The position numbers and the translations under genes are program-made. From IMG/VR virus record IMGVR_UViG_3300045988_131485: a stretch of DNA of 64,000 bases. One strand, 5' to 3'. This stretch comes from a virus. The notes below the pieces were generated by a model. The model made no database searches. It was not told the DNA's origin and saw only the letters and a program-made list of their open reading frames with translations. This document shows, in pieces, positions 2,746 through 45,126 of this stretch; positions within the stretch are counted from its first letter, which is position 1; each line of letters starts with the position of its first letter.

Positions 2746-3501
2746 TCATGCCGGCGACCCCATGATTTGAGCAAGACGGTAGAGCACCGTCACGAACTGT
2801 TCACGGGTAACAAGGTCTTGCCACATATAGTTGGGTTCACCATTGATGACAGTCCCGTTGCCGGTAATCAAACCCATATCCAACGCCCACTGCCGCGCCT
2901 CAGCGCTCCACTGGCCGCAGTCGTTGTCCTGCAGTTCAGCTCTCATTTCCTGAAAGAGTTTTCTGAACTGTTCCAAATCAGAATCGGACGCAGGAGCAGT
3001 CTGTGAGGCAAACTGGTCATAGTACCGCTGCCCATACTCAGCACGCTTCTTCTGAACATCCTTACTCTGGTTTGCCGGCTTCTCAAAGTTCAGCAGCACG
3101 GCATTGGAAGCCTCCAATACAGAGGTTGCCGCCCGCAGCACCGCCAGCACGCCGGGGTAGCTCTCGAACAGCTCTTTCCAAAGAAAATCCAGCTGCATAA
3201 TGAGATCTCCGATAGATTTTCCAGACGCCTTAGCAAAATCCAGCAGGGCTTGCTTCCGAGTCCAAAACGTCCACTGAGCAAGGCCAAAACCAGCCTTGTC
3301 CTGCACGAAATTTGTGTAGGTACCGTTATCCACAGCAGCTACATAAGCATTGTCATTCATGCCAAGGACGTTTTCATAACTGTTCTGCAAATTCCGAGGA
3401 TTAAGGCCACTTTCGGCAAACAAGTTGCCCATCAACCCAGCGATCCCATACTCATTCAATCCCTTCTTTTGAAGGTAGTCATGAATTGTCAGTTCGTTCA
3501 T
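2746..3501 (-). CDS. Endolysin: phage lysozyme-like glycosidase (Phage_lysozyme2-type) with the same SLH-like C-terminal module
   Basis: The motif GIAGLMGNLFAESGLNP is typical of this lysozyme family. AAGGAGGTG SD. Confidence 0.75.
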   Translation of the reverse strand: MNELTIHDYLQKKGLNEYGIAGLMGNLFAESGLNPRNLQNSYENVLGMNDNAYVAAVDNGTYTNFVQDKAGFGLAQWTFWTRKQALLDFAKASGKSIGDLIMQLDFLWKELFESYPGVLAVLRAATSVLEASNAVLLNFEKPANQSKDVQKKRAEYGQRYYDQFASQTAPASDSDLEQFRKLFQEMRAELQDNDCGQWSAEARQWALDMGLITGNGTVINGEPNYMWQDLVTREQFVTVLYRLAQIMGSPA

Positions 3502-3512
3502 CTCGCACCTCC

Positions 3513-4538
3513 TTACAGATCAGAAAGCGCGGCTTGCTTCTGCCCGACGATTTCACCGTTCATGCAATACTTGCCGATTTCGTCCTCATCGTCGATATCC
3601 TTGTAGATATCCACCATTTCCAAGCTCTCCCATCCAATGATGGTCTTGATCACAGAATCGGGCAGGTTTGCCTTGGCAAGTGAAGTCGTAAAGAAGTGCC
3701 GGAGACTATGCCAATACACAGGGATACCCAGAATATTGGAGAAGGTCTCCGCCCAGCTGTTCAGTGTAGAGATAGGCACCGTCTTCGTAGGATCGTCCCT
3801 GTCAGGGAACAGCCACTCACTTTCGATACCCAGATCTGCCCGCTTCGCCATCCACGCATCGAAGTAGGGCTTGAAAGGCTTTGCCAGCACATAGCAGGTA
3901 AGCATTTTTCCATTGACGCCCTTGCCCTTCGTTCTGACTTTCTCAGGCGTTTTGTAAAACGTGCCATAGATGATGTTCTCGTCGTCGAAGTACGACACTT
4001 TGAATCGCGTCAGCTCAGACTTGCGCCGTCCAGAATACCGCGCCAAAGCGAAGCAGCAGGCTTTCTCGTACTGCCCGCGCTCCATCAGATAGTCCAAGAG
4101 TTGATCGGCCTGTTCGTCGGTCAGCACCGTCTTCTCTCTGGTCGGCTCATTTACCGGGTTCTCGATCTTGCGGACGATTGACCGGAAGTTGGGAAGCTCG
4201 TCATCCAAGATTGCTTCGATGTAGTTGCTCAAAGATGACAACGTACTCTTCAGCCGGCGCACACGGGCGGGAGAGTTCTCGTTGTTCCGCAACAGCCAGT
4301 TTTGGTACGAGATGATGTCACGCTTGCTAATCTCCGGGAAATACTTGTTGTCCGCATTTTGGAGTACCCACACGAAGAAAATATACAAATCGCTCGTATA
4401 TGCCTTAACGGTGGAATCCGCCTTGCCGATACTCCGCAGGTATTCCAGAAAATCGTTCATCAGCCGAATGTTCTTCGGGTTGATCTGGGCGATCAATTCC
4501 GGGCTGGTGATCTTGTTTTGTCTCGTCTTCCGTCCCAT
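3513..4538 (-). CDS. int: Tyrosine recombinase / phage integrase (XerC/D-like)
   Basis: C-terminal HSLRHFFTT...GWESLEMVDIY (R..H-R-Y region) and an N-terminal SAM-like core-binding domain. ATG at 4538 preceded by AAGGAGGTG. Confidence 0.85.
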   Translation of the reverse strand: MGRKTRQNKITSPELIAQINPKNIRLMNDFLEYLRSIGKADSTVKAYTSDLYIFFVWVLQNADNKYFPEISKRDIISYQNWLLRNNENSPARVRRLKSTLSSLSNYIEAILDDELPNFRSIVRKIENPVNEPTREKTVLTDEQADQLLDYLMERGQYEKACCFALARYSGRRKSELTRFKVSYFDDENIIYGTFYKTPEKVRTKGKGVNGKMLTCYVLAKPFKPYFDAWMAKRADLGIESEWLFPDRDDPTKTVPISTLNSWAETFSNILGIPVYWHSLRHFFTTSLAKANLPDSVIKTIIGWESLEMVDIYKDIDDEDEIGKYCMNGEIVGQKQAALSDL

Positions 4539-4566
4539 AACTCTCACCTCCTTTTTCGTATGAAGA

Positions 4567-4596
4567 AAGAGCCGCACCTTTTTAGGTACGGCTCTT
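4567..4596 (-). terminator. Hairpin terminator/attenuator immediately upstream of the integrase SD
   Basis: 12-bp stem (one mismatch) AAGAGCCGCACCT/AGGTACGGCTCTT with a TTTT loop, followed by UUCUUCAU on the minus strand. Confidence 0.6.
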
Positions 4597-4603
4597 AAAA
4601 AAT

Positions 4604-4644
4604 GGTTAGCAAATAGCTGTTTTATTCTGTTATGTGTAGCGGGG
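4604..4644 (+). promoter_or_regulatory. Promoter-like box GGTTAGCAA-N-TCTGTTATGTGTAGCGGGG, oriented antisense to the late genes
   Basis: Same architecture as the boxes at 61840, 62385, 63151 and 63692. Confidence 0.4.
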
Positions 4645-5073
4645 CTTCTCTCCACCCTCTACCGCATACCTCATCCAGTCCAGTATGACAATGCCCACAA
4701 CGGATAGGACAAGCCACAGCAAAGTAAACTGCGGGCAGATTTGTCCCAGGATATTCCCGGCCAAGTGCGAGTAATCCCACACTCCCAAACCAAGCCACAC
4801 ATTCAAAACAAGTCCGGTAACGAACTCTAACGCTGTAATCGCGGCAGCACAGATACACGCCTGCCCTACCAACGGCATTCCCCAGGGAAGCTCTGCTCCG
4901 AAGCGTTCCAGAGGGACGGCCAGAATAATCGCTAACGCAAACATCGTCCAGCTGATTGTTTCCGGCCTACCCTGAGAAGTCTTCCAGATGACCTCGCCGA
5001 AGAAATACACACCGCCAGTCCAAAACCAGAGCAAAACAGAAAGCACCCACTTTCCAATTCGTTTCCGCTCCAT
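4630..5073 (-). CDS. Polytopic membrane protein (DUF1113 / putative ABC-transporter type IV CmpB-like)
   Basis: 4-5 hydrophobic segments and a WDYSH motif. Trimmed to the ATG at 5073. Confidence 0.55.
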   Translation of the reverse strand: MERKRIGKWVLSVLLWFWTGGVYFFGEVIWKTSQGRPETISWTMFALAIILAVPLERFGAELPWGMPLVGQACICAAAITALEFVTGLVLNVWLGLGVWDYSHLAGNILGQICPQFTLLWLVLSVVGIVILDWMRYAVEGGEKPRYT

Positions 5074-6521: not shown

Positions 6522-6546
6522 CGTGATATACCTCCAAATAAGAAAA

Positions 6547-6569
6547 CACCCGAAGATTTGCTTCGAGTG
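6547..6569 (-). terminator. Rho-independent terminator after the DGR reverse transcriptase
   Basis: 9-bp stem CACTCGAAG/CTTCGGGTG followed by UUUUCUUAUUU on the minus strand. Confidence 0.7.
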
Positions 6570-6587
6570 TAATCTGTTAGTTATTTT

Positions 6588-7751
6588 TTACGCGGACTTC
6601 TTTAGTTGTTCTTGCTCTCTATACCGACTAAACATGGCATAGTGCAGCCGTCTCAACCGTAACAACCTACCGTGATCGTCAAAATTCCTGTAGTACGCAG
6701 TCTGACATTCCATGTATTGATCTATCTCGAAAAGTGTTTTCCTACCGGCAAGATATTCCCTATGGAACATTTTCAACTTACGCCTTGCACGCTTCACACC
6801 ATCACGGCTACCGTTGATCTTGATTGCTCCGGTTTCCGTCAATGTGAAACGAGCTTTACAAAACCTAAACGGCTTTGTAAGCGGAATGATTTTACACTTT
6901 TTCTTATTCACCCTAATACCGAAAGACTCAAACTTTTTAACAATATCTCTTGCTATCTGTTTCAGTTCTTCAATATCATGGTAAATAACATAGTAGTCAT
7001 CCATGTAGTGACCTGCACAGTGAAGACCAAGTTGACACTTGATATAGTTGTCAATCGCACTTGGGAGAGACACCATCTCCTGCTGGCTTGGTTCCACACC
7101 CAAAGGCATACCTCTACCAGGCGCATTGCCATAAGGCGCATAGTCAATGATCGCGTCTGCCACTGCTCGGATCTGCGGATCAAACATTACTTGCTGATGC
7201 CGACGATAGATGATGTCTCTATTAGCATTCGGAAAGAAGCTCTTCAAGTCAAGAAGGAATATACCTCCTTCTCTTCCATAGCGTCGGTAATGCCATGCAA
7301 GCTGCTGTGTTAGCCTGCGGAAATGCCAATGTAGTCCCTTACCTCTCTGGCTTGCTCCATTGTCGCAAATCATACTCGGATGATAAAGGGGAATGAGGAC
7401 TTCATTTGTAAAAACCTTATGAATCTGCCGATCGTCGATGTGCGGGGCGTCAATCGGTCGCACTTTTCCACGCTCAGAGATGGTGAAATGTGCGCATTTC
7501 TTTTGTTTCCACTTACCGTCCAAAACTTCACGCCGTCTCTTGGCTGTTCCAGAAAATAAGTGAAGCTCAAAGTTTTGCGTACTCTGTTTCCAACGGACGC
7601 CCGTACAACATTTTCTCCCATAGAAGAACATATCGTGATAGTTGAAAACATCTTGAAGTGTACCGACTTCTTTGCTTCGTTTCAGTCTGTTTGCTTGTCG
7701 CTTTGATTTCCTGCGATGATATCTTGCCTCTCGGCGTTCTTCGCTTGTCAT
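6588..7751 (-). CDS. DGR reverse transcriptase
   Basis: YMDD catalytic box (nt 6996-7007), DGR-type LGxxxSQ motif (PLGVEPSQQ), and location directly downstream of the TR. Confidence 0.9.
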   Translation of the reverse strand: MTSEERREARYHRRKSKRQANRLKRSKEVGTLQDVFNYHDMFFYGRKCCTGVRWKQSTQNFELHLFSGTAKRRREVLDGKWKQKKCAHFTISERGKVRPIDAPHIDDRQIHKVFTNEVLIPLYHPSMICDNGASQRGKGLHWHFRRLTQQLAWHYRRYGREGGIFLLDLKSFFPNANRDIIYRRHQQVMFDPQIRAVADAIIDYAPYGNAPGRGMPLGVEPSQQEMVSLPSAIDNYIKCQLGLHCAGHYMDDYYVIYHDIEELKQIARDIVKKFESFGIRVNKKKCKIIPLTKPFRFCKARFTLTETGAIKINGSRDGVKRARRKLKMFHREYLAGRKTLFEIDQYMECQTAYYRNFDDHGRLLRLRRLHYAMFSRYREQEQLKKSA

Positions 7752-7971
7752 AAAAAGTGTTCGCCCTCCGCATAGTTGTCTTGTAGGTGCGCGTCTAAAC
7801 TACTTTGACCCGACACATGAAACGAGGATAGCGCAAGTACCCCGCCATGCAAGCAGCGTCCGTGTAAGGTCGTCAAAGGGCAGTTTTAGGGATTTTCACC
7901 CAGGGAAGTATCTCTCCTTTTGCGAGGGTCGTCTTTCACCTATCGGTTACTCCATGTGACCCCGCATCGCA

Positions 7972-8093
7972 AAATCCGGGCGCGAGCGCAGCCGCATTCC
8001 TTGCATTGTTATTGTTGGCGCTGCCATCAGTGTTCACATTGCAGAAATTGTTGTTATTGTTGTAATTAGCAGAGCGGAGCCACCACCACGCCG
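7972..8093 (-). repeat. DGR template repeat (TR)
   Basis: 122 bp aligning to 9084-9205 (offset 1112) with 113 identities. Asn(AAY)-rich when read in the VR frame. Confidence 0.9.
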
Positions 8094-8148
8094 CCAAAGG
8101 CGGCGAAAACACCAAGGACACGTTTTCAGAAATACACCCAATAAAGAT

Positions 8149-8613
8149 TCAGCTCTTTTTGATTTGCCCTAACGATTTCAGAGTCCCTTTGATCAACTCA
8201 TCTTCGTTGTCAATCATTTCCCCAAGACTTGCAGCCATTCTGTCTAACTTTTCCGTTGCCTCCTTCGGAGATACTGAATTTCCCTTAGAAGTTGTAAAAC
8301 ATCCCTCGGGGTTCTTCATTATCACGAGATAGCAATGCGTAAGTCTGACATCCAGTGCTTTTAAGGAAGCTCTTGCTTCCAGCAAATGCGCTTTGCGTAA
8401 CTCAATTCTCTGAGCGTCTGATGGGAAAATACTGTTCGCTTTCTCAGCATGATCCACTACTTCTCCAGCCAACTTAGCCACAGGTTCGGCCAAAAGTCTG
8501 GAATACCGTGCAGACATCCTTGTGAGAAAATTCAGCGTTTCTACATAGATTTGGTTAGCAGTATTGACATACTCAGCCTTACTCGTAGTCCGCCTTGCTT
8601 TCAATACAGACAT
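8149..8613 (-). CDS. avd: Avd-like DGR accessory protein (predicted helical bundle)
   Basis: 154-aa helical protein in the canonical position between the target gene and the TR. Loosely similar to the four-helix-bundle / 23S-IVS family. Confidence 0.6.
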   Translation of the reverse strand: MSVLKARRTTSKAEYVNTANQIYVETLNFLTRMSARYSRLLAEPVAKLAGEVVDHAEKANSIFPSDAQRIELRKAHLLEARASLKALDVRLTHCYLVIMKNPEGCFTTSKGNSVSPKEATEKLDRMAASLGEMIDNEDELIKGTLKSLGQIKKS

Positions 8614-8645
8614 TCTTTTACCTCTCTGGTGAATGGTCTTTTGCC

Positions 8646-8834
8646 CTATTCATCTGACTTAGTTTGATTAGCAGTAATCGCTCCCTCCGCTTTTTCGACT
8701 TCTTCCAGATGTTTCAAAAGCACAAACTCTATGTAGTTTGTCATGGAGCGATGCTGTTTTGTCGCCAGCGCACCAATCTTATCAAACACCTCATCAGATA
8801 GACGCAGCGTGAAAACACGTTTGTTTGATGCCAT
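8646..8834 (-). CDS. Ribbon-helix-helix (CopG/Arc-like) DNA-binding protein
   Basis: MASNKRVFTLRLSDEVFDKIGALA... fits the beta-strand/helix/helix pattern. ATG at 8834 with GGGAGG 6 nt upstream. Confidence 0.6.
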   Translation of the reverse strand: MASNKRVFTLRLSDEVFDKIGALATKQHRSMTNYIEFVLLKHLEEVEKAEGAITANQTKSDE

Positions 8835-8946
8835 ACTCAACCTCCCACTTACCTGCACATAAATATTTTAGTGCTATTTTCAGCTTTTGTATGCAGTATT
8901 TAGACTGTTAAGTGATAGCATTTTATAGGGTATTTTTCTAAAAATC

Positions 8947-8975
8947 GCGTCGGCGGCGCAAAGCGCCGCCGACGC
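8947..8975. terminator. Perfect 13-bp GC hairpin downstream of the VR-bearing gene (bidirectional terminator and/or DGR target-recognition hairpin)
   Basis: GCGTCGGCGGCGC-AAA-GCGCCGCCGACGC, flanked by T-runs on both strands. Confidence 0.7.
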
Positions 8976-9074
8976 TTTTGTTTTTTTGTCTCCGTATCTG
9001 TTACCTTATCTGTCCTATCGGGGAACCCGCCCATTTTCATGGGCGGGATATGGATTGGGATACTCTGCGGAGGA

Positions 9075-11168
9075 TTAGACAGCAAAGCCGGGCGCGAGCG
9101 CAGCCGCATACCTTGCAGTGTTATTGGTGGCGCTGCCATCAGTGTACACATTGCAGAAAGTGCTGTGATAGTTGTAATTAGCAGAGCGGAGCCACCACCA
9201 CGCCGTAGAGCCGGTAGCGTTGTGTCTATACATGACCCTGCTGTTACCGGAAGAGTAATAGGCGTACTGCTTCTGGTAGTTCTGCTCATACTGGTTAGCA
9301 TAATAACGAGTGCCCTGTACCTCGAACTCAGCCAGCAGGAACAGATAGTCGGTGAATGCCTTGACATTCGCAGCCACATTGGAGCTGTTGCCAACGGCAT
9401 CGGCGTATTTGGTAACGCCCTTCATAACCGCTCTCAGGTCAGCAGGAAGCGCAGCCATCAGCGTATTCGCAACAGGGTTTGTAGCACAAGTGGCACTTGC
9501 GTTATAACCAACTCTGGATGTAGTTACAGTAGAACCGTAGCCAGAAGGAGGCACATCGGTACTACCCAAAACATCGTAACGCAGGTCACAACCAGCCCAG
9601 CCACCATAGTTATAGTTGCCCCAATGGTTCATATTGAAATACTTTGTACCATTGGTATAATAGCTATTGTAGCCACTGTCAATCAGGCCAATTAACTTAC
9701 TACTGATCTTACCAATCTGGAAGTGAATCCTGTTGCTGCCCTCGACAGAGCTGTTGTGGTCAAAGCCCAAAATAAAAACATCAACAGACAGGTTGGAAAG
9801 AGAAAGCGTTCCAACTGTACCGTTGATGGTAATGGTCTTTGTTGCGCCGACTGACCAGTATGTGCTCGCCAAACCAGCTGCAGCGATCTTACTGATATCT
9901 TCCCAAGAGCAGTCGTTCAATGCAGTACCGACAGCAGGAAGGAACTCCGCAGACACCGCGACCGTCTTACTGCCAGGGGCAGTATGGTTTGTACCGGCGG
10001 CTACACTGATAGTGATTTTCGCCGTACCAGTCTTATCGTTCACACTTTGGATAGTCACCACATTCCCGCTGACAGAAACCTTAGCAACACTGGCGTCGCT
10101 GGTTTGTGCGGAAATTGCACCGTCACCGGCACGGGTAACGGTGACTGTCTTGCTTTTGGCCGAACTATTCAGAACTACGCTCGTCGCACTCAGACTCAAA
10201 GAGCCTGCTGCCTTACTGATAGCCCAGCTTACCGTCTTAGCAGATGTGCTGCCGTCAGACCAGCAATAATCGTCCTTGGGAGTGAAGGCGGCGTTGTAGC
10301 TTCCGGCATTGATGCCGCTTGTAACTCCACCCAATGTCATTTTGGAGCTATCATAGTTGCTCCATGACGGGCTTTGAGTATTGCCCGTATATGTCAGGCT
10401 ACCACTCTGTCTGGGAACCGTAGAGATTGCAAGTCGATTAGGTACGCCGGTGACACGATTGGCAGTGCTCGTGTTTACTGCTCCGTCTGTAGAAGTCGGG
10501 AAGAACGACACATAATAGGTCACTCCGTTTTGCAGACCGGTAACAATCAGCGGGCTACTGGCATACTGATTGCGAGTCGTTACCACCAGCCGATATGCAG
10601 CATCCACGTCGTCGGGATCAGTAGCATAACCGCCCGCCTTAACTACTACAGTAGTCTTCGCCCAGGTCGCCAGCGTTACGCCGTCATTCACCATGGTGGC
10701 CGAAGGATCAGTCCATTTCAGCGCCAGCTTGCCGTTACCAGCAGCAACAGCACTCATGCTGGACACATTGCCAACTGCCACGGGAGTGGGTGTCTTGTTG
10801 AACTCGTCGTCTGCGCTGTCCGTATAGGAACCTTGCGTAGTGTAGGGGAAGAACTTATAGTAGTAGGTTACGCCGTCTGTCAGGCCGGAATCGCAGAAAT
10901 ATTTATTTTGATACGCATTGCGAGTCTTGCTATCCAAGACTACCGTACCATCACGACGGCTTACGGGGGCACTACCTGCCTTACGCACCAGCAGAGTACC
11001 GCCCCATGCTGCCAGTGTGGAGCCGGCCACAACCAGATCGTCAGGGTCAGTCCACTTCACATAAACCTTGCCGGCAGCGGCCAAGGTCTGAATATCTGTC
11101 ACAGCGGCCAGGGTCAGACCGCCTGTTCCGCCTCCACCACCAGAGGGGAAATTGCCAAGAATAGGCAT
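9075..11168 (-). CDS. DGR variable protein: distal tail fibre / receptor-binding protein with FN3-like and Ig-like (Big_2) repeats and a C-type-lectin-fold-like variable C-terminus
   Basis: 697 aa. Two YYxxFFP-type FN3-like modules and a Big_2-like segment. C-terminus ...WWWLRSANYNYHSTFCNVYTDGSATNNTARYAAALAPGFAV carries the VR. Confidence 0.85.
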   Translation of the reverse strand: MPILGNFPSGGGGGTGGLTLAAVTDIQTLAAAGKVYVKWTDPDDLVVAGSTLAAWGGTLLVRKAGSAPVSRRDGTVVLDSKTRNAYQNKYFCDSGLTDGVTYYYKFFPYTTQGSYTDSADDEFNKTPTPVAVGNVSSMSAVAAGNGKLALKWTDPSATMVNDGVTLATWAKTTVVVKAGGYATDPDDVDAAYRLVVTTRNQYASSPLIVTGLQNGVTYYVSFFPTSTDGAVNTSTANRVTGVPNRLAISTVPRQSGSLTYTGNTQSPSWSNYDSSKMTLGGVTSGINAGSYNAAFTPKDDYCWSDGSTSAKTVSWAISKAAGSLSLSATSVVLNSSAKSKTVTVTRAGDGAISAQTSDASVAKVSVSGNVVTIQSVNDKTGTAKITISVAAGTNHTAPGSKTVAVSAEFLPAVGTALNDCSWEDISKIAAAGLASTYWSVGATKTITINGTVGTLSLSNLSVDVFILGFDHNSSVEGSNRIHFQIGKISSKLIGLIDSGYNSYYTNGTKYFNMNHWGNYNYGGWAGCDLRYDVLGSTDVPPSGYGSTVTTSRVGYNASATCATNPVANTLMAALPADLRAVMKGVTKYADAVGNSSNVAANVKAFTDYLFLLAEFEVQGTRYYANQYEQNYQKQYAYYSSGNSRVMYRHNATGSTAWWWLRSANYNYHSTFCNVYTDGSATNNTARYAAALAPGFAV
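9084..9205 (-). repeat. DGR variable repeat (VR)
   Basis: Differs from the TR at 9 positions, all T on the plus strand (A on the coding strand) in the TR. Ends 9 nt before the stop codon. Confidence 0.9.
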
Positions 11169-12219: not shown

Positions 12220-13311
12220 TCAGAACGTACCGACAGTCAGAGCTGCAACAACAGCGTCCAGATTAGCCTTGTCGCCCTCAGCGATCTTGTCCAGCTCGGT
12301 CTTGTTGGCGTGCTCGTGAGCCTTTGCAGCCGCAGCATCCCACTTAGCCTTGTCGCCCTCAACGATCTTATCCAGTTCGGTCTTGTTGGCGTGGCTGTGC
12401 TTCTTGGCAACAGCGTCCTTCAGATCCTCGTTGGTCTGATCGTAGGTGTCGAGCAGAGCCTTGTTAGCGTGGGTGTGGGTATCCTTCTCCAGAGCAGCGA
12501 TGCGGCCAATAGCAGCAGTCAGGTCAGTAGCCTTGGCATAGTCACCGATGTTCAGAGCGGCGATAGCGCCGTCAGTATACTCCTTGATGTAGGCAACCAC
12601 GGTGTCGCTGACAGCTCCCTCGGGCAGAGTGCCAACCAGGTTCTGCAGGGCGGTGATAGCCTGATTCATCGCAGAGGCGTCATCGGGGTGAGACTGAATC
12701 CAAGCGGCGATCTCGGCCAGAGTATTCAGAGACTCCTTGGCGCTCTCGGGGATCAGCTGCGCAGCCAACTCCTCATTGGCAATGGTACGGGCAGACTTAC
12801 CGGCATCAGCACCAATCAGAGTGGTCAGCTTGCCATTGGCAGCGTCCAGATCGGTCTGTTCAGCCTTGCCGTTGATCTTGGCCTTCAGGGTAGCCCCCAG
12901 CTCGGTCTCGCTCACCTCGTCCTTCTTTGCCAGAGCGCCCAGACCATCAACAATGCCGGCAACTTCTGCGACCTTCGCATCGGTATAGTCCTTCACAGCC
13001 TTGCTGGTAGGCACAGTGCTGTTATCAGCGTTCTCGCCGATAGCGGTAGCATAACCCTTGATCACAACAACCCAAGCGGAGCCATTGTAGACCTCGCCAA
13101 CACCGGTATCGGTATTGACATAGATCACGCCCTCGGCAGGAGTGGCAGGCTTACCCTCAGCGCTGGTATAGAAACGGACGCCCTCACCGTACTTCTTGTC
13201 ACCGAAATACAGCTCGCGGGTGTCGTCAGTCAGGTAGAAGCTACCAGCATCACGAACGGCAGGCAGGTTGGCCTTGTTACCATGGTACACGAGTTTGTAG
13301 TTTGCAGTCAT
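12220..13311 (-). CDS. Tail fibre protein with coiled-coil shaft and C-terminal HxH repeats
   Basis: 363 aa, Ala/Lys/Asp-rich helical region, then three HxHANK..LD units. Confidence 0.7.
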   Translation of the reverse strand: MTANYKLVYHGNKANLPAVRDAGSFYLTDDTRELYFGDKKYGEGVRFYTSAEGKPATPAEGVIYVNTDTGVGEVYNGSAWVVVIKGYATAIGENADNSTVPTSKAVKDYTDAKVAEVAGIVDGLGALAKKDEVSETELGATLKAKINGKAEQTDLDAANGKLTTLIGADAGKSARTIANEELAAQLIPESAKESLNTLAEIAAWIQSHPDDASAMNQAITALQNLVGTLPEGAVSDTVVAYIKEYTDGAIAALNIGDYAKATDLTAAIGRIAALEKDTHTHANKALLDTYDQTNEDLKDAVAKKHSHANKTELDKIVEGDKAKWDAAAAKAHEHANKTELDKIAEGDKANLDAVVAALTVGTF

Positions 13312-20944: not shown

Positions 20945-23900
20945 TTATCTCCCGATTCCAATGAGCCGTCCAATCTGATTGACCATATCGCGTGTAACCT
21001 TGATATGCTTATCAACCGTAGACTGGTCGGCACCATGAATGATCGTATCGCCAATCTGCACTTCAATGGGTCTGCTGTTGTTGGTGATATTATTTACCGT
21101 CTTACTGCCGCCTACCTGCTTCATCACATCAGACAAAGTAGACTTGCCAGCATAATCCGGCAGATCACTCATTGCGTCAGAGAGCATATTGATACGATCC
21201 ATCTGTGTGGTCAGATTGTCCACCATCTGTTCGCTCAATACCCACTCCTTGGTTTTCAGCAGAGAGAGTTGTTCGTTGGACTTGATATCTCCTCCGCCGA
21301 CAATGCCACCCTCATGATAGGTGTACTTTCTGTACTTATCGTACAGCAGTTGCCCACCCACGCGATCTGCGTACCAAACACCATCACTGCCGCGCACCGC
21401 AGTAATGCCATACTGTGCCAGCTGTGCGCCAAGCTCAAGATTGCGCCGGTTCAGATAGAGCTTGCCGGCAGCATCTTCATAAGCGTGCTGCTTGCTGTTT
21501 GCATACATTTCTTTGATGATCGCATGGATCATATCTTCGCCGCTGGAGCTATTGTCGTAGGTAGCATTCCCAACTTGGAAATTTGTTCCGCTGGACTGCG
21601 TGGCCTTGATGTCTCCTCCGATACTTCCCAGAGCAGACACGTAACTTCCATACCGTTGTGCAGCAGCCAAGCAGTTATCCCAAGCATTCGTAATATCACT
21701 GTTCAGCACATCACCATACTGCGTGTTCCAACTGATCAGCTCGCTATACAGCGTATCCCAGTGAGACTCGATATAAGAGATTGCCATATCATAGAGCTTC
21801 TGATGAGAAGAGATACTGTCTTCCAGAATCCCAATTTCCTTATCCTTCTCATCATGATAGGACTCTTCCATCTTATCCAGAGCGTCCTCCTGAGCCTCCA
21901 GTGTTCTGTCCGCCTGTTCGTCGGCCAAATCAGACTGAAGCTCACTCAGTTCTTTGAGCAACGCCGCTTTTTCAGCCTGAGCTTCGCGGCTGTCATCCAG
22001 AGAAAGCATATCAATACGAGCTTGCAGCTTCGCAATCTCACGCATTTTAGATGCCATGGTCTTCTGGTGATCTGCCTCGTCTTTGCTGGCCTCCAATGAC
22101 TGCTTCTTCAGGTCGATAATTTCAGAGTACGCATCCTTCATGTCCTCCAATCCGTCGATCTGATCTTGGATACGCTGTTTCAGCATATCCATTACATAAT
22201 CGAGGATGTCGTTCAATCCGTTCTGCATCTCCTCTAACTCGTCCGTCACGCCACCCACGGTTTTACCAATGCTCTGTACGGCACTGTCCGCCATAGCCCG
22301 AATTGCATTGATATTCCGCAACGCCGCTTGGTACTGATCTTCGTCCAGTCCAGCCAAAGCCAGATTTGCATAGACCAATCCCCAAGTTGCGTTAGTAGCC
22401 TGTTCGGTTGCATACAGCAAATTATTCAGAGTTGCGATATCGCCCTCAGACTTTGCCATACGAAGCGCTTCTACATAGGCCAAAGAACTCTCAATCGCCA
22501 TCTGCTGCGTCCGTGCGGCAATAACCGCTTGGATGCGCTCTTCGTTGATGACAAGCTGCCCATTCTCATCAATCAGGTACGCTACGTACTTCTGCCCAAG
22601 CCCGATAATACTCTGCAAAGTATCTACGGTAATGAACCCGCTCTGGGCATACTCGTCCGCCGCGTCATGGAGTGTGTCATAAACATTTTGGATAGTATCA
22701 ACCGCGTCGGAAGCCTCTTCAACGATACCATCCAGAAGCTCCATAATCTGCTTACGGGCTTCCTTGATATCCTGTCCAAGTTCTTTCCAACTTTCCGAAC
22801 CGTCACGATTTTCCTCGTTCAAGTCCGTCAGAGAATTGATAAGATCCTCAGTTTCCTTCCTCAAACCATTTGTGGCCTCCTGCAGAGTGTCGTATCCACC
22901 CTTACTATCGGCCACCAGCTCATTCAGGTGCTCCATGTTTGCGATCCAAAGTTCATTGGTATCGGCGTTATACTGTACCTCGAACCCCAGATCTCGCAGC
23001 GCCTTAACGTTGGAAGAGATCGTGCTTTCCCTTTGGTCATTCAGATTTTGCAGCGCCTCTTGCTCACGCTGATAGGCACCAATCAGCTGACGCTCCAAAA
23101 GGATTTTCTCTCTCAAATCGTCAGAGTTATCAATTTTGGTTTCAAGCTCCGCTCTGGCCTCTTGTGTCTTGCGCAGCCGTTCAACCGCCTCTCGATAGTC
23201 GTCAATGGTAGCGACATACTCTTCGGCATCTTTCTTAGAGCTGCTACCCGACTTCGTATCGCTCTTGAAACTCTTCAAAGGCGTATTTTTCAACGCCTGC
23301 AAAGCCGCGATTTGTCCATCAATCTGGCTGATCGCGTCTTGGTACTTGGAAACATCCAGTTCAATCTGGGAAATAAAGTCCTCCAGATTGCTTTCCTTAG
23401 CGGTGTAGGAATATTCTGTCCCCTTAAAGCTACCGCTTGTCAGGTTGAGCTTAATGCCACTACCGCCAGTACCACCACCAGACCCACCTTGTACGTCAGC
23501 CGATCCAGCTACTGTACCGCTTGCAACACCAGCAATAGCCTTAGCTGTCTGGTGTGCCTGCTTTGCGACAGAAGCAAGATCCGTCTTTACGCTGGTCAGG
23601 TTGTTGTACATCGTCTGCGCCAGATCATAGGCAGCTTGATTAAAGTTGCCATTTACATCCGTGCAGACCTCAGCCGCTACCCGGTTGAACTCTTCCGCAT
23701 TTTGAGCCATAGCAGCCGCCGCCAGCTTAAACGCAGTCGCCTCATCAACGCCAGCATCAATCAGAGCCTGAGCAACAGCATTACCGGCATTGATCCGATA
23801 CTCCGCCAGCTCTTTTGAGATATCTCCCTCACCCTCAGCAACTGCTTTGGCAAGGTCAAGCTGCGTCTGAGCTGCTTCCATCTTGGCCTGCAAGACTGCC

Positions 23901-26900
23901 TTTTCAGCTTCCAGCTGGGCAATTTGCCCATCAATCTGAGCATCCAATTCAGCCTTTTTGCCTTGAATGAAAGAGTTTACTACGCCCTCGTTAAGGATAA
24001 TCTGACCATCAGCCGCTACTTGGGCATTGTTCATGATCTCAGGATAGACCTTGGCGAACTCCAAAGCCTTATCCAATGACATGGTAAACCCGTTGGCTAC
24101 CTCAGCCTGCAAATCTGCAAGCGTCTGGAAAGAATCAGAGATAGTATCAATGGTAGTTGCAACATTCGAGAAGTTTTGCAAGGCAGAAGTATATGCGTCC
24201 AGATCACCAGTGATTGAACCGTACAAACTGCTGTAGATCGCCAACTTGCCCTGGTTTTCAGCAATCGCCTCGTTGTTTTTCTTGATTTCCTCTGTAGCGT
24301 TGCCGATCATGCCCAACCACAGACCACCATCATTGCCAAGGTTACGCTGCTCCTCGTAATACTTAATGCTCTCTTGCAGGGTGGCGTTACGCTCTTGAAG
24401 CGAGTCGATCTCCTTTTGGATCTCGTCCATCTCGCCCTGCATTTTAGCATTAGCGTTTTCTTTCCATGCCGCTGTGTTGAGCTTTACGACGCCGTTCTCC
24501 TCGTAGAGGTAGTCCAGATATTTTTCCTCAGCACCGGCAAGAGACTCAATAGTTTCAGCAGACAATCCGCCGCCACCGGCCATATCACTTTCGGCAGACG
24601 CCAAAGCATCATACGAAGACTGCAACCCCGAAATAACATCGGTCAGTTTTTCCAGCTGTGCGATATATACAGAAGTGCCACCGTTGTTTGTGGCCTGTTG
24701 CATTGCTCCGCTGAACTCCGGGAAGGTATCGTTGGCAAGCTCCAAAAGGATCTTCTTATATGCCTCAGAATACTCCGTGCTATCCTTGATCCCCTGGATA
24801 TATCCGTCGAAAGCATCCTGAGTATTGATATCAGTAGTTTTCAGCGTCTCTCCAAGGTCAATGACCGCCTCATTTTTGAGGAAGTTCTCTTGAGCGGAGT
24901 TATAATCGTCTACGAGTCCCTGATAAAACTCAATCTGCTGCTGAACGTTGTTGAGGACATCTTGGGATGAGTCCCCAAGCCAGCTATCAGCCATGCTTTG
25001 CCAACTATCGTCACTCAAAAGTACGTGCTGGAGTTCTTTGTACATTGCCAGGACTTCTTCTGCGTTCTTTCCTGCCAGTGCATAGCTAATACTGATTTGC
25101 CCGTTGACATTTTCCCACGCATCATTAACATAACCGATCTTTCGCAAAATCTGGTCAATGCCACCTGCGTCAGTAACAACGCCAAGGAAATTCGTTCCAG
25201 AACCTTCAGCGTTGATACCTTGGTTATATCGTGACATTGCATCACGGTACTTGGTATCCAAAGTATCTCTGGCGTCATACGCTGCTTGCAGTTTAATGTT
25301 GTCGAGCTTCTTGATCTCGTCATCCAGCTTGCCATTAACCAGATCAAGATTATCAGCCTGCGCCCCAACCAGATCCGTGATATCTTTCTGGATGCGCTTC
25401 GCCGTCTCTCTGGCAGAAGAGTCGAAGTCACCGGCAGTTGCCAGCTCTTTATACTCTGCAATCAGATCGGCAAGCGAATTACGCTGATCATTAGCCGCCT
25501 CCGCAGCCTCAGTCATAGACTGACGAGCTTCTTCTGCCCGTTGTTTTACGCTTTGCCATACCTGAGCCAAAGCCATGACAGCAGTAACTGCCAGGGTAAT
25601 CCATGTCATGGGGTTAGTCGCCATCGCCGCAAATGCGGCCTTGGCGTTGGCACCGAGAACCTTCAAAGAAAATGCCTGCTTCTCATTCGCTGCGGTCTGT
25701 TGCAGAGCAGCAACGATTGCTTCTTTCTGAGCAGCCGTCAGTTTCTTGGAGTTTAGGATCTCGGTCATCATTGCGGCGGTAATCTGCTCGGTCGTCCGCT
25801 TCTCGGTAGCTTTCGCCATATTCTTGGCAAGCGTAGCAGCAGTCGTTTTATCCGTAGCAGCCTTTTCCGCCAACTCTTGGATCGTATATCTCTGTGCAGA
25901 AGCAATCAGACTGGTCATTGTCATGACCTGCTTCTTCTGCTCCGCAGTCAGTCCAAGTGCGCTCATTGCTGCCGCACGCTGAGACTTATCAAGTCCCATC
26001 AGCTTAGTAGCATAATACTGTACACTTGTGGCGCTACCGTCCATAACCACGCCAGACGCTCTTATAGCCTCTGTCACCGGAAGGACAGTGCTCTGGAGCA
26101 TATTCATTTCGGCACGGAATTTATAAATCAACGCAATCGCACCAACAAGACCGATTGTACCAAACAATCCCAGCTTCTCCGTCAGCTCGTCAATCCCGTT
26201 GGAAACAAGGTTCAAAGCATCAACAACGAGCTTCATATCGTCGGTCTGGAACAGGTTCTGAGCCACACCAACCCATGTTTCTTTCAGTGCATTCAGCTTA
26301 TAATCCAACGATTGCGTAATCTTGTCCATCTCGCGTCCTGCGCTGCCGGCGCTCTCTTCCATCTTTACGATGGCACTACGCGCCTGATCAAAGTTGGACA
26401 AAATCGCGGCACCAATCTGGGCCTGCCGTTTACCGAACAGAGCCTCCAAAAGGTTAGCTCTATTCTTATCGGTCAGCTCATCCCAGATATCCGCAATATC
26501 GGACAGAATGTCATAGGTAGAACGATAAGTCTCGGGATCGTCCGCCTCAAACAAACTGATACCCCGGTTATTATTGCTTGCGACCTTAGTGAGATCGGCA
26601 ATCGTACCGGTCAATTCGGACACGTCTGCGGAGTATTCCTCCGTCTCCTCATCATAGCCACGGATACGCATTGACAAGGTTTTCAGACCGTTACCAACCG
26701 TCGCCGCGTCTCTTGTGATTTCGATAGCGGCGGTCGCCAGAGCTACCGTTTCCTCAAATGTATTGTTTGCAGCAGCCATAGCAGCAGAGCTACGGGTCAT
26801 AGCCTCCACAATATCACCGTTGGACACGGCGAACTTATTACCCACTTCGTTGACCTTGGAGATAATACCATCCAAAGAGTCTTCAACATCGAGGTCGTAA

Positions 26901-29113
26901 GCCTTGATGATACTTACCAAGCCGTCTGTCGCCTGGGTAATATCCATGTCGGGAGAAATAGCTTCAAAGATAGCAGAGTTTTCTGCCAGCTTTGCGGCAT
27001 CTTGCATAGCATAGCCCAGTCGTGCCCATTCCGCCGTCTGAGAAATAACTTCCTCAGTGGTTACACCCAGCGCTTTGGCTGTGCCATTGGCACTATGATA
27101 GAAACGGTCATACTCCTCTCTGGTCGCGGTCGTGACTTTTTGCAGGTCAATCATGGCCGTATCCAGATCAACGATCGTAGTAAGTGCAGATCTCAGCAGC
27201 CGGAACGCACGGAAGAGAAGCGTAGTAGCAGATACCCACTGGAGTACCTTACCTACGTTGTTCTTCAAAATGTCGCCCAAAGACTGCATATTCTTTCCAG
27301 CAGCTTTGACCTCAGATTTGAACGTGCTAAATTGCGCCGTCCATTTTCTCAAATCCATCTGATTGTCAACGCGCTTGAGGTTTTCACTCAGCTGTTGGAA
27401 TTGCGCATTAAGACCGGGATCTTGCTTCAATGCACTCCACGTTCTTCCAACTGTTTCCAAATCCGCCTTTGCTTTCTCCAAGTTTTGAGTAAACTTGAAG
27501 TCGTTGATATCACCACGCTGGACGCGGAGAAGTTCAGACATTTCCTTACTGCAAGCACCAATCAGAGATTGCAGCCGCTCATATGTCGTAACCTTCTCCC
27601 TATCCCCCATATCAGCGCCATACTGTGCCGCTGTCTCCCGGAGCAGTCTCATATTCTGCACGAGATTTTCTGTGGGGGCCACCACCTGGCTAAACTTCGT
27701 TTGCAAATCAGCAATGGTAGACGGGATACTCTGCATTGCGACATCGTAATCTCGCGCTTTGTCAGCCAGCTCCATCTGGGTATAAACCAGTTGGGTACCA
27801 TTCAAAAGACGGCTCTGTTCAAGAGCCGTCGCCTGCTTCGCATATTGAATAATATCAGCATAGGGAACCAGCTGTGCCTCCAGAGCCGCCCGCTGATTAT
27901 TCAGCACAGACAGTTGACCTTGCAAAGCCAGCAACTTGTTTTTGTCGTCGCTGGTATTCAGCTTTGTCATAGAAGACTGAACAGAGGTAATCTGCTTGTC
28001 CAGAGAGATCAACTGAGTATAGATCTTGTTCGCACCACGCAGCCGCTCCTGGAAGACAGCCACATCATTGTTCAGCTGGTCAAAACTGTTGAGGAAAGCT
28101 ACCAACTGATCTTTGGTGCCGACGCCTTGCAAAGTTTTCTTCAATCCGTCGATCTTACTCTTGAACGTGTCGGTCAGTGTTCCGGCAGATTCCAGTCGTT
28201 TCTCCAAGGCTTCCAGCCCGGAAAGCTGATCGGCCTTGATAGAACCGATGTCCTTTGTTCTCAGCTTGGTTGCTACATACTCGGCATTCTGGTACTCTTT
28301 GACCAAACGCTGCAAGCCGGAAATCTGAGCTTCCAGATTAGAGCGTTGAACATTATCCAGCCGCCCTTCGGCGGCAATCATGGTCTCAATCCGGGCATTG
28401 ACTGCGGCGTAAGTATCATTCAGCGCTGTCAAATGAGCGCTATCCGTAATCGGCTTTACAGAAGTTTGACCGACATAAGCGGCTTGAATATCAGCCAAAA
28501 GAGCCTTTTGGCGATTCAAGTATGAAACCCTTGATTCATTGTCCTTCTTGGCCTGAGCCGCTACCTGCTCCTGCTCTCTGCGCTGACGCTCCAGATTTGC
28601 AGTCACATTGGTCAAATGGGTATTGATTTCGCCAGTCTCCGCATTATAGGTTTGCAGATACGTGACGGTTCTCTGCATCTGATCCGTACCCTGAATGGTC
28701 AGATTCAGCATACGTTCCTCTTCGCCGTTCACCGCTTCCCAGCGGCCAGTGATTCGGTCAATCTGGATACCCATTTGATCCAGTTGATCAGTCATGGCAC
28801 GAGAGATGTCGGGGCTGACCTTCAAATTATTAAGCTCAGTCTTAATCTTGTTGACAGAGCTTTGATTCAAGCTCAAAGAAACACCAACGCTTTGGGATTT
28901 TGTTGCTCTGGCGATTTGCTGAGTAATCCGCTGAGTTTGAGACTGAATACCAGCTTCGTCCAGAGTTACACCAACCTTGATGCTGCTTTTGGAATTGATC
29001 AGCTTTGCAATGTTGGGAAGTTGCGCAGAAATACGTTGTGCGGAAGCCTCTTCATCAGCCTCCAGCTCACTGGTCAATACAATTTTCAGATCTTCGTCCA
29101 CATCTCTCACCAC
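20945..29113 (-). CDS. Tape measure protein (2722 aa)
   Basis: Giant helical ORF with a TP901-type TMP core (AKALGVTTEEVISQTAEWARLGY...GLKTLSMRIRG) and TM-like segments. Confidence 0.9.
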   Translation of the reverse strand: MVRDVDEDLKIVLTSELEADEEASAQRISAQLPNIAKLINSKSSIKVGVTLDEAGIQSQTQRITQQIARATKSQSVGVSLSLNQSSVNKIKTELNNLKVSPDISRAMTDQLDQMGIQIDRITGRWEAVNGEEERMLNLTIQGTDQMQRTVTYLQTYNAETGEINTHLTNVTANLERQRREQEQVAAQAKKDNESRVSYLNRQKALLADIQAAYVGQTSVKPITDSAHLTALNDTYAAVNARIETMIAAEGRLDNVQRSNLEAQISGLQRLVKEYQNAEYVATKLRTKDIGSIKADQLSGLEALEKRLESAGTLTDTFKSKIDGLKKTLQGVGTKDQLVAFLNSFDQLNNDVAVFQERLRGANKIYTQLISLDKQITSVQSSMTKLNTSDDKNKLLALQGQLSVLNNQRAALEAQLVPYADIIQYAKQATALEQSRLLNGTQLVYTQMELADKARDYDVAMQSIPSTIADLQTKFSQVVAPTENLVQNMRLLRETAAQYGADMGDREKVTTYERLQSLIGACSKEMSELLRVQRGDINDFKFTQNLEKAKADLETVGRTWSALKQDPGLNAQFQQLSENLKRVDNQMDLRKWTAQFSTFKSEVKAAGKNMQSLGDILKNNVGKVLQWVSATTLLFRAFRLLRSALTTIVDLDTAMIDLQKVTTATREEYDRFYHSANGTAKALGVTTEEVISQTAEWARLGYAMQDAAKLAENSAIFEAISPDMDITQATDGLVSIIKAYDLDVEDSLDGIISKVNEVGNKFAVSNGDIVEAMTRSSAAMAAANNTFEETVALATAAIEITRDAATVGNGLKTLSMRIRGYDEETEEYSADVSELTGTIADLTKVASNNNRGISLFEADDPETYRSTYDILSDIADIWDELTDKNRANLLEALFGKRQAQIGAAILSNFDQARSAIVKMEESAGSAGREMDKITQSLDYKLNALKETWVGVAQNLFQTDDMKLVVDALNLVSNGIDELTEKLGLFGTIGLVGAIALIYKFRAEMNMLQSTVLPVTEAIRASGVVMDGSATSVQYYATKLMGLDKSQRAAAMSALGLTAEQKKQVMTMTSLIASAQRYTIQELAEKAATDKTTAATLAKNMAKATEKRTTEQITAAMMTEILNSKKLTAAQKEAIVAALQQTAANEKQAFSLKVLGANAKAAFAAMATNPMTWITLAVTAVMALAQVWQSVKQRAEEARQSMTEAAEAANDQRNSLADLIAEYKELATAGDFDSSARETAKRIQKDITDLVGAQADNLDLVNGKLDDEIKKLDNIKLQAAYDARDTLDTKYRDAMSRYNQGINAEGSGTNFLGVVTDAGGIDQILRKIGYVNDAWENVNGQISISYALAGKNAEEVLAMYKELQHVLLSDDSWQSMADSWLGDSSQDVLNNVQQQIEFYQGLVDDYNSAQENFLKNEAVIDLGETLKTTDINTQDAFDGYIQGIKDSTEYSEAYKKILLELANDTFPEFSGAMQQATNNGGTSVYIAQLEKLTDVISGLQSSYDALASAESDMAGGGGLSAETIESLAGAEEKYLDYLYEENGVVKLNTAAWKENANAKMQGEMDEIQKEIDSLQERNATLQESIKYYEEQRNLGNDGGLWLGMIGNATEEIKKNNEAIAENQGKLAIYSSLYGSITGDLDAYTSALQNFSNVATTIDTISDSFQTLADLQAEVANGFTMSLDKALEFAKVYPEIMNNAQVAADGQIILNEGVVNSFIQGKKAELDAQIDGQIAQLEAEKAVLQAKMEAAQTQLDLAKAVAEGEGDISKELAEYRINAGNAVAQALIDAGVDEATAFKLAAAAMAQNAEEFNRVAAEVCTDVNGNFNQAAYDLAQTMYNNLTSVKTDLASVAKQAHQTAKAIAGVASGTVAGSADVQGGSGGGTGGSGIKLNLTSGSFKGTEYSYTAKESNLEDFISQIELDVSKYQDAISQIDGQIAALQALKNTPLKSFKSDTKSGSSSKKDAEEYVATIDDYREAVERLRKTQEARAELETKIDNSDDLREKILLERQLIGAYQREQEALQNLNDQRESTISSNVKALRDLGFEVQYNADTNELWIANMEHLNELVADSKGGYDTLQEATNGLRKETEDLINSLTDLNEENRDGSESWKELGQDIKEARKQIMELLDGIVEEASDAVDTIQNVYDTLHDAADEYAQSGFITVDTLQSIIGLGQKYVAYLIDENGQLVINEERIQAVIAARTQQMAIESSLAYVEALRMAKSEGDIATLNNLLYATEQATNATWGLVYANLALAGLDEDQYQAALRNINAIRAMADSAVQSIGKTVGGVTDELEEMQNGLNDILDYVMDMLKQRIQDQIDGLEDMKDAYSEIIDLKKQSLEASKDEADHQKTMASKMREIAKLQARIDMLSLDDSREAQAEKAALLKELSELQSDLADEQADRTLEAQEDALDKMEESYHDEKDKEIGILEDSISSHQKLYDMAISYIESHWDTLYSELISWNTQYGDVLNSDITNAWDNCLAAAQRYGSYVSALGSIGGDIKATQSSGTNFQVGNATYDNSSSGEDMIHAIIKEMYANSKQHAYEDAAGKLYLNRRNLELGAQLAQYGITAVRGSDGVWYADRVGGQLLYDKYRKYTYHEGGIVGGGDIKSNEQLSLLKTKEWVLSEQMVDNLTTQMDRINMLSDAMSDLPDYAGKSTLSDVMKQVGGSKTVNNITNNSRPIEVQIGDTIIHGADQSTVDKHIKVTRDMVNQIGRLIGIGR

Positions 29114-44101: not shown

Positions 44102-44177
44102 TGGTGCGCCTGAAGGGATTTGAACCCCCGACCCACGCATTAAAAGTGCGCTGCTCTCCCAACTGAGCTACAGGCGC
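44102..44177 (-). tRNA. tRNA-Lys(UUU)
   Basis: Cloverleaf folded by hand. Anticodon loop CUUUUAA. CCA encoded. Confidence 0.9.
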
Positions 44178-44564
44178 ATATGTTGTATGAAGTGACTCCA
44201 CTCCCGGCCTCACCACACACCTTTACCTTGGATTCCGACCGCCACTCACAGCCGTGATATGTTATCTCAATCAGGCAATAATTCCGATTTGCACGGTTAC
44301 TACACTTATTTATCCTCCATTGCTGACTACCATTAGAGGGGCATACTTTCCCAGGCTCACGAAGTCCCGTTGGGGTATGCCAGCCCGCCGCACTCCTGAT
44401 CGGCTTGCCGCTTTGCTTACAGCGTTTAGGTTGGTCTATCGCGTTTTGCCTGCGCCGGACTTTCACCGGAGGGAGCGACCCCAATCTACCTGCACACGGC
44501 CAATTTTTATTTTACCGACGTGTCAGAGCCGTCACACGTCATCATAGGTAGTATCCTTACGGAC

Positions 44565-44640
44565 TGGTGGGATGAGAAGGAATCGAACCTCCGACGCGCA
44601 GGGCTTCAACCTGCCGCTCTTCCAACTGAGCTATCATCCC
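44565..44640 (-). tRNA. tRNA-Phe(GAA)
   Basis: Anticodon loop UUGAAGC, GGTTCGATTCC T-arm, CCA encoded. Confidence 0.9.
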
Positions 44641-44873: not shown

Positions 44874-44884
44874 ACTTGTAAAAT

Positions 44885-45055: not shown

Positions 45056-45126
45056 TGAATCACCCACTCGTCAATTTGAACCCGACCTTATTTCAGTTGC
45101 ATATCGGGTAGCAACAAATATTTGTA

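Follow-up and report, generated by a model that had tools for sequence, protein, structure and literature searches.

Do the genes and repeats at positions 6,588 to 11,168 of the IMG/VR virus record IMGVR_UViG_3300045988_131485 constitute a working diversity-generating retroelement (DGR), and if so, what does it diversify? We analyzed a 64,000-nt stretch of this record (hereafter, the window), in which an earlier reading of the letters alone (the sequence-only reading) had proposed a complete DGR acting on the C-terminus of a distal tail-fibre protein. Among prokaryotes and their viruses, no natural system besides DGRs is known to carry out targeted hypermutation of proteins. We conclude that the DGR is complete and almost certainly active, and we are highly confident that it is a functional element of the type carried by Faecalibacterium phage FP_Taranis, in a temperate siphovirus-like prophage of Oscillospiraceae. 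This conclusion builds on the anatomy of the element, its adenine specificity, the stability of the template repeat against the variability of the variable repeat in the population, and the conservation of the parts among relatives. The proposed completeness held: all the defining parts are present, and the population data show adenine-specific diversification of this very variable repeat.

Adenine-confined differences between the two repeats

A repeat search and a base-by-base comparison placed the template repeat (TR) at 7972-8093 and the variable repeat (VR) at 9084-9205, both on the minus strand. They form a 122-nt direct repeat with an offset of 1112, in which 113 of 122 positions are identical (93%) and similarity breaks off sharply on either side; the repeat search found no further copy of the pair and no second VR in the 64-kb window. 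The nine mismatches lie at TR positions 7975, 7998, 8006, 8015, 8034, 8048, 8051, 8055 and 8058, and every one of them is a T on the plus strand, that is, an A on the coding minus strand. The TR holds 33 adenines among its 122 nucleotides, and the chance of all nine mismatches falling on adenine is 3.2e-6 (hypergeometric). The sequence-only reading had aligned the repeats by hand, and its coordinates, its offset, its identity count and its nine mismatch positions were all reproduced exactly, as was the placing of every mismatch at one of about 33 template adenines. It had named a corrected alignment with non-adenine mismatches as one result that would overturn it; our re-alignment gave none in the window.

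The TR is non-coding and lies 220 nt upstream of the reverse transcriptase (RT) gene, and the VR lies at the 3’ end of a protein-coding target gene, where it codes for the last ~40 residues (aa ~656-695 of 697). A 61-aa open reading frame (ORF) at 7936-8121 (minus strand) overlaps the whole TR and has no independent support as a gene; it is an artefact, because the TR copies coding sequence. Translated in frame with the target, the TR gives ...ANYNNNNNFCNVNTDGSANNNNARNAAALAPGF and the VR gives ...ANYNYHSTFCNVYTDGSATNNTARYAAALAPGF, which amounts to eight amino-acid replacements and one silent change; on re-translation, the translations quoted in the sequence-only reading were exact. Thirteen of the TR codons in this frame are AAY, 31 of the 33 adenines occupy codon position 1 or 2, and no substitution of a TR adenine can produce a stop codon. 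The computed repertoire of the VR is ~10^19 DNA sequences and ~10^18 peptides.

The adenine-only pattern recurs in related elements. Searching with the RT yielded 80 IMG/VR loci and 74 genome loci, and 41 loci contain a full TR/VR pair. Across these 41 cassettes, 594 of the 615 mismatches fall on a template A, compared with 10 on T, 7 on C and 4 on G, and the adenines are replaced by G (222 cases), T (196) and C (176). A single locus, L077 (TR 4630-4757, VR 3817-3944), accounts for 15 of the 21 non-adenine mismatches and has 14 adenine mismatches besides, unlike all other loci; it may be a decaying cassette, or its VR may have recombined.

The 3’-most of the nine differences (TR ...CCCGGATTT versus VR ...CCCGGCTTT, window positions 7975 and 9087) stands apart from the rest. 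It follows a GC-rich block of 20 nt, GCGGCTGCGCTCGCGCCCGG, that is the same in TR and VR, and beyond it the homology is lost. The equivalent A-versus-C difference is the same in 40 of the 41 related loci, though the GC-rich block before it varies among subclades. It is silent (GGA in the TR and GGC in the VR, both Gly), so protein-level selection does not explain it, and C is the rarest replacement at the other TR adenines. Because of this constancy, this silence and the rarity of C elsewhere, position 7975 is a fixed TR/VR marker at the homing boundary, not as a product of mutagenesis. The nine A-site differences counted as substituted adenines in the sequence-only reading are all real; once the marker is set aside, eight of 32 mutable adenines have been mutagenically substituted in the window. 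Programs that tally A-mismatches need to allow for this clade-wide single fixed A/C difference at the 3’ boundary of the repeats. The sole exception to the marker is L042, whose VR 3’ end (about 3950-3957) reads CGGATTT as in the TR, in place of the CGGCTTT of the other 40 loci.

A GC-rich block shared with the TR and followed by a TR/VR mismatch is the arrangement that defines the initiation of mutagenic homing (IMH) element, and in phage BPP-1 the mismatches between IMH and IMH* set the directionality of homing (PMC3240598). The VR 3’ end at 9085-9107 (minus strand) has this arrangement, with the fixed C (VR) or A (TR) next to the block, and is thus a putative IMH-type element, in line with the sequence-only reading, which had called the block IMH-like. 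By analogy, the marker is comparable to the IMH/IMH* mismatches of BPP-1 and could take part in setting the direction of homing.

Reverse transcriptase, cis-acting elements and accessory genes

The RT gene (6588-7751, minus strand) encodes 387 aa with the motifs YMDD and LGVEPSQ, and matched RVT_1 (E 5.5e-14) and phrog_1423 (E 1.4e-63). The best PDB sequence match of the RT was 8ub7_A (E 8.5e-7), which is the RT of BPP-1 (bRT), the alignment being identical to that with the brt gene of NC_005357 (23% identity, pairwise E 3e-12). In this alignment, LGVEPSQ corresponds to IGSLTSQ (Leu at I181), KVRPID to KPRLIS (Arg at R74) and YMDD to YMDD. The motif [I/V/L]GxxxSQ is the signature of DGR RTs, and R74 and I181 promote adenine mutagenesis (PMC7826257). 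The signature motif, the YxDD site and bRT as the best solved relative identify the enzyme as a DGR RT.

The repeats might instead be an ordinary duplication of a gene fragment, with mismatches due to chance or composition, lying beside an unrelated retron, group II or defence RT. The RT did give weak matches to group II and defence-RT (DRT) models, but these were far under the cut-offs: 42 bits versus 300 for the group II RT/maturase model, and 16-21 bits versus 200-450 for Drt3a, Drt4 and Drt3b. PADLOC gave only generic RT matches of at most 47 bits. Retron models, too, matched far under their thresholds, and the enzyme reached the cut-off of no retron, group II or defence (DRT, Abi) family. 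Intron RNA is lacking, and the spacer RNA is of another kind (RT-2, see below); the DGR-specific LGxxxSQ motif is present; and the adenine-only pattern (p=3e-6) recurs in 41 loci. Together, the adenine-only pattern, the cut-off scores, LGxxxSQ and RT-2 refute a chance duplication as well as a retron, group II or defence RT, and we give this explanation practically no credence.

The gene order, the spacer of roughly 220 nt and the RT with YMDD and LGxxxSQ were all as the sequence-only reading stated. Two cis elements had escaped it. First, the 220-nt spacer that separates TR and RT is filled by a full-length RT-2 RNA (Rfam RF03077; 7743-7964, minus strand; 182.2 bits versus a threshold of 40, model positions 1-222 of 222) that ends at the RT start codon. 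RT-2 lies in the same position in 11 of the 11 relatives scanned, down to ~54% RT identity, and the BPP-1 control has a different Rfam family in its spacer (RF03022, ‘Phage_DGR’). The motifs RT-1 to RT-19 were reported as orphans lying close to RT genes. For RT-10, that paper noted a place in the BPP-1 spacer, and it put forward as a speculation that other motifs of the set are parts of DGRs (PMC5737381). With the present data, the orphan family RT-2 can be recognised as the TR–RT spacer RNA of this DGR clade.

Second, 36 nt downstream of the VR, the sense strand contains a hairpin/cruciform with a 9-bp GC-rich stem and a GAAA loop (9026-9047, minus strand; CCCGCCCAT-GAAA-ATGGGCGGG on the coding strand from 9047 to 9026). 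Among 28 distinct relatives, 27 have a GC-rich stem of 6-11 bp with a 4-nt loop (GAAA, GCAA, GGAA, GTCA or GACA) at the same site, and the changes between their stems are compensatory. Such a hairpin/cruciform is needed for BPP-1 homing and is conserved in phage DGRs as a 7-10 bp GC stem with a 4-nt 5’-GRNA loop, 4-34 bp from the VR (PMC3240598). The hairpin of the window fits this phage DGR consensus, at 36 nt from the VR versus the published 4-34 bp. Two terminator-like hairpins frame the DGR operon on the minus strand: a bidirectional 13-bp intrinsic-type hairpin at 8947-8975, which ends the target transcript upstream of the operon, and another at 6546-6570, which closes the operon. Among the relatives, L103 (an Acutalibacter prophage) has a match to the type II hammerhead ribozyme (9564-9652, minus strand; 40.9 bits versus a threshold of 37), ~3.4 kb downstream of its DGR RT.

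Between the VR and the TR, in the position of avd, lies a gene for a 154-aa protein (8149-8613, minus strand) with a full-length match to phrog_30516 (E 7e-83). The gene is found at this place in 41 of 41 cassettes with 70-100% identity, and we regard the protein as a core component because of this universal presence. The AlphaFold2 (AF2) model (pLDDT 84.7) contains four long helices (residues 14-30, 35-60, 67-99 and 116-153), predicting a four-helix bundle, and the isoelectric point (pI) is 9.25, compared with 9.55 for the Avd of BPP-1 (bAvd). The sequence-only reading had termed the protein Avd-like, which is its weakest part: the term would draw on position, size, basic pI and the predicted bundle, and sequence does not support it. 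Single-sequence searches of Pfam, NCBIfam, PDB and PADLOC matched nothing; 37 diverse members of the family gave no match to Avd-type Pfam families at E≤1, and the profile built from them matched nothing in the PDB; and the hhalign probabilities were 0.3% with bAvd and 0.17% with a profile of 26 bAvd-family members. For comparison, bAvd itself scores 123 bits on PF22296. A Foldseek search of the PDB with the model also returned no significant match, with 4dwl and 8ub7_B outside the top 50. The fold match is weak: the only recurrent, non-significant matches were five 2gsc chains (probability 0.95-0.99, target-normalised TM 0.59-0.69, E 0.17-0.8), and 2GSC represents, as a structure, PF05635, which of the Avd-like families has the most frequent link to DGRs (PMC10053308). 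Cornuault et al. reported Mushu and Lagaffe as the only carriers of Avd homologs and, for Taranis-type DGRs, suggested ‘another small protein’ (PMC5883640). By analogy of place and predicted fold, we read the 154-aa protein as a functional equivalent of Avd; it is possibly a very remote homolog, and its membership of the Avd family is not established by sequence. The ‘missing Avd’ long noted for Taranis-type DGRs would then be a universally conserved, basic, helical protein of 154 aa that sequence methods do not link to Avd.

The first gene of the operon encodes a small DNA-binding protein of the Arc/ribbon-helix-helix (RHH) family (8646-8834, minus strand; 62 aa from an ATG with the ribosome-binding site GGGAGG, the ORF list starting at GTG 8858). 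It is Arc/RelB-like by weak matches (Pfam Arc, E 2.7e-4; PHROG Arc-like repressor, E 8e-7). The RHH gene that the sequence-only reading had included in the gene order is indeed present in the window but optional in the family: it occurs in 28 of the 41 related cassettes and is lacking in the 13 with a TR–VR offset of ~800 nt, so the mechanism can do without it. Placed at the head of the operon, it may have a role in transcriptional control.

The closest published counterpart is the DGR of FP_Taranis (also Pioen/Roos), described by Cornuault et al. in 2018 (PMC5883640) and in a 2024 study of Faecalibacterium prophages (PMC11792537). A megablast search of the INPHARED phages with the cassette found nothing, and the relatives were found at the protein level. 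FP_Taranis has the same order, namely a DUF6273 target with a C-terminal VR, an Arc-like gene, a hypothetical protein of ~152-154 aa, the TR, the RT-2 RNA and the RT, with identities of 68% for the RT, 71% for the accessory protein, 75% for the RHH protein and 47% for the target over aa 202-697. Its gp68 and gp69 are annotated as ‘DGR target’ and ‘Arc-like repressor’, and it shares the fixed CGGATTT/CGGCTTT boundary and the hairpin position. In contrast, FP_Taranis is a P2-like myovirus with a baseplate (gp25/J/I), while the window is siphovirus-like, with Dit, a Tal-like protein and a very long tape measure; the N-terminal ~200 aa of the two targets are unrelated; and FP_Taranis resides in Faecalibacterium, whereas the relatives of the window are found in Oscillospiraceae (Dysosmobacter, Hominicoprocola). 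As the same module is present in a siphovirus-like genome and in a P2-like myovirus, it has passed from one phage type to another among Oscillospiraceae and Ruminococcaceae hosts.

The prototype DGR of BPP-1 (mtd-avd-TR-brt) is alike in gene order and polarity, in the placing of the VR at a tail-module gene’s 3’ end, in adenine-specific TR-to-VR differences with an AAY-rich TR, in a GC-rich IMH followed by TR/VR mismatches, in the GAAA-looped GC stem that lies downstream of the VR, in a structured RNA flanked by TR and RT, and in an RT with the [I/V/L]GxxxSQ motif and the R74 equivalent. It differs from the window in several respects: the RTs are only 23% identical, the accessory protein of the window has no detectable homology to bAvd/PF22296, the spacer RNA belongs to RF03022 Phage_DGR in place of RT-2, the target of the window (four FN3 domains and DUF6273) has no sequence similarity to Mtd, the RHH gene is extra in the window, and IMH and IMH* of BPP-1 have five mismatches in 21 bp, whereas the window has a single fixed base followed by loss of homology. 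Taranis-type DGRs, that of the window included, could conceivably form a mechanistically distinct subclass, in which an obligatory, non-Avd, independently recruited helical cofactor (phrog_30516) and the RT-2 RNA, of another fold family than the BPP-1 Sp RNA (RF03022), make up a different RT–cofactor–RNA architecture for priming and adenine mutagenesis; we consider this rather doubtful. In such a system, the facultative Arc-like repressor might add transcriptional control over the timing of diversification.

Diversification among relatives and the activity of this copy

Close relatives show a stable TR together with a changing VR. In the loci whose RT is at least 98% identical to that of the window, the TRs are nearly invariant (at most 3 nt from the window TR), while each VR departs from its own TR at 7-17 adenine positions, in a pattern that is different every time. 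Prophages in Hominicoprocola fusiformis CLA-AA-H269 and Dysosmobacter segnis BX15 have an RT 100% identical to that of the window and are 98.4% identical over 11 kb, and their VRs diverge from the window VR by 14.4% (H. fusiformis) and 8.1% (D. segnis), against about 1.5% elsewhere. In general, the VR varies by 8-15% between prophages that are otherwise 97-98.5% identical, and this local divergence is confined to A sites. These different VRs in near-identical prophages require repeated recent homing in the lineage. The occurrence of the two ~98.4%-identical prophages (L084 and L085) in isolates of different genera, which is relevant to a phage that diversifies its receptor binding, reflects either a broad host range or inconsistent taxonomy.

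The target protein shows the same pattern. Its 90%-identity cluster holds 5,962 distinct sequences, and among 15 aligned members, the last ~47 residues (aa 651-697) contain 26 variable columns with 138 minor-residue counts, compared with at most 16 counts in each of the other 25-residue bins. Variation falls on the columns that correspond to AAY, AGG and TAC codons in the TR, and F-C, V, TDGSA and AAALAPGF are constant. The ACT, GAT and AGC codons of ‘TDGS’ hold adenines yet are nearly invariant, which implies selection against those variants. At the population level, heterogeneity of the VR is thus found beside a stable TR. Seven IMG/VR contigs (L021, L036, L038, L039, L041, L049 and L054) start inside the VR, at position 1-4; assembly breaks are the usual signature of a hypervariable repeat.

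Three points weigh against a functional DGR in this particular genome. First, the case for current activity of this copy draws on its relatives and on the intactness of all its parts. Second, a promoter scan of the minus strand upstream of the operon detected no sigma-70-like consensus. Third, the accessory protein has no detectable homology to Avd, so its cooperation with the RT is assumed by analogy. The first two of these points would also suit a relic, that is, a DGR that was once active and is now inert in this copy, with VR differences that are vertically inherited fossil substitutions, and the 15 non-A mismatches of L077 suggest that some cassettes do decay. A relic is, however, hard to reconcile with a cassette in which all parts are intact, the RT is 100% identical to the copies in two cultured isolates and no mismatch lies outside the adenines, nor does it agree with the different VRs of near-identical prophages or with the size of the target cluster. 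We therefore consider a relic highly improbable and keep to an active DGR. A clean and complete DGR in a prophage of cultured gut Oscillospiraceae (D. segnis BX15, H. fusiformis CLA-AA-H269) is open to experiment, although it leaves the general knowledge of DGRs, a well-documented kind of system, unchanged.

The diversified protein and its tail-module setting

The target gene (9075-11168, minus strand) encodes 697 aa with about four N-terminal FN3/Ig-like beta-sandwich domains and a C-terminal, VR-bearing DUF6273 domain (Pfam, aa 573-690, E 2.7e-11; phrog_37900, E 4e-160). The AF2 model (pLDDT 90) has about four beta-sandwich domains in residues 24-407 and an alpha/beta C-terminal region, and it places the VR in the beta-strands 658-663, 670-674, 680-684 and 694-696. 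Foldseek matched the full-length model to FN3 arrays in the PDB and to BFVD entries automatically named tail-collar fibre, DUF6273, minor tail and J protein, with the FN3 domains dominating the match lists; a search of the PDB with a C-terminal profile and an hhalign comparison with Mtd were negative. In the tentaclins of the gut phages nd4 and nd12, which are DUF6273 DGR targets, the domain is reported to be C-type-lectin-like with the VR as a surface beta-hairpin (PMC10743442). The tentaclins likewise have the VR in DUF6273 and combine it with FN3/Ig-like domains, and the model of the window target also puts the VR in beta-strands; the RT of nd12 is only ~27% identical to that of the window.

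Taking BPP-1 as the model, diversification would proceed as follows. The operon (the optional RHH gene, the 154-aa accessory gene, the TR, the RT-2 RNA and the RT) would be transcribed, and the RT would act together with the accessory protein, using the TR and the RT-2 RNA as a self-contained template and scaffold, with the spacer RNA serving in priming. The TR would be copied into cDNA faithfully except opposite adenines, where any nucleotide could be inserted, and the cDNA would take the place of the VR at the target gene’s 3’ end; the GC-rich IMH-like block, the fixed A/C boundary difference and the GAAA hairpin downstream would determine the direction. As a result, ~19 codons (13 of them AAY) would be randomised on the surface of a C-terminal DUF6273 (putatively C-type-lectin-like) domain atop an FN3/Ig-like stalk, with ~10^18 possible peptides and no stop codons. 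By the same analogy, the purpose is most likely a change of the ligand or receptor that the virion binds.

The gene order on the minus strand runs TerL, portal, tape measure, Dit, a minor tail protein of 1,322 aa, several small genes, a fibre-like protein of 363 aa that contains repeats, and the target, followed by the DGR, a phrog ‘tail fiber protein’ and the holin-like, integrase and endolysin genes. A tail-module adhesin is well supported; the labels ‘distal tail fibre’ and ‘tropism switching’ of the sequence-only reading, which draw on gene neighbourhood and analogy, overstate the case, though they are plausible by analogy with Mtd. An active DGR could instead serve a virion-surface adhesin, Hoc-like or ‘tentaclin’-like, that binds mucus glycans or environmental ligands and tunes adherence, not host range. 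The N-terminal two-thirds of the target is an FN3/Ig-like chain, and Ig-like arrays are typical of decoration or adhesion proteins. Moreover, the N-terminal 200 aa of the target cannot be aligned to the Taranis or Pioen target, Cornuault et al. assigned no function to the Taranis target and proposed mucus binding for Ig-rich targets of other phages (PMC5883640), and proteins combining DUF6273 with Ig-like domains are those described as tentaclins (PMC10743442). On the other side, the gene sits in the tail-tip module, after Dit and the minor tail protein, beside fibre-like genes and before the phrog ‘tail fiber protein’; its best viral structural matches bear tail-fibre, minor-tail or J-protein names (automatic annotations); and the N-terminus of the Pioen target resembles the A511 tail fibre protein gp105. 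We regard such a surface adhesin as a serious possibility, though the less likely role.

Several other features of the window accompany the DGR. Two genes upstream of the target, the ORF of the fibre-like protein (12220-13311) contains two tandem 81-nt repeats that are 80% identical (12244-12405, minus strand) and encode ‘...HANKTELDKI.EGDKA...’. With 2,722 aa, the tape measure (20945-29113, minus strand; phrog_4211, E 2e-83) is of exceptional length, and so implies a tail that is very long and non-contractile. A tyrosine integrase (3513-4655, minus strand) lies between the holin-like gene and the endolysin (2746-3501), within the region 2746-4655, and its presence marks the phage as temperate. 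Upstream of the terminase region, a dense array at 44102-48669 (minus strand) contains 22 tRNA genes. A full-length tmRNA (47748-48176; Rfam, 88.6 bits, E 4.7e-33) lies within this array and was not reported by ARAGORN, and a borderline Rfam ‘tRNA-Sec’ at 44785-44873 is tRNA-Ser(UGA) according to ARAGORN.

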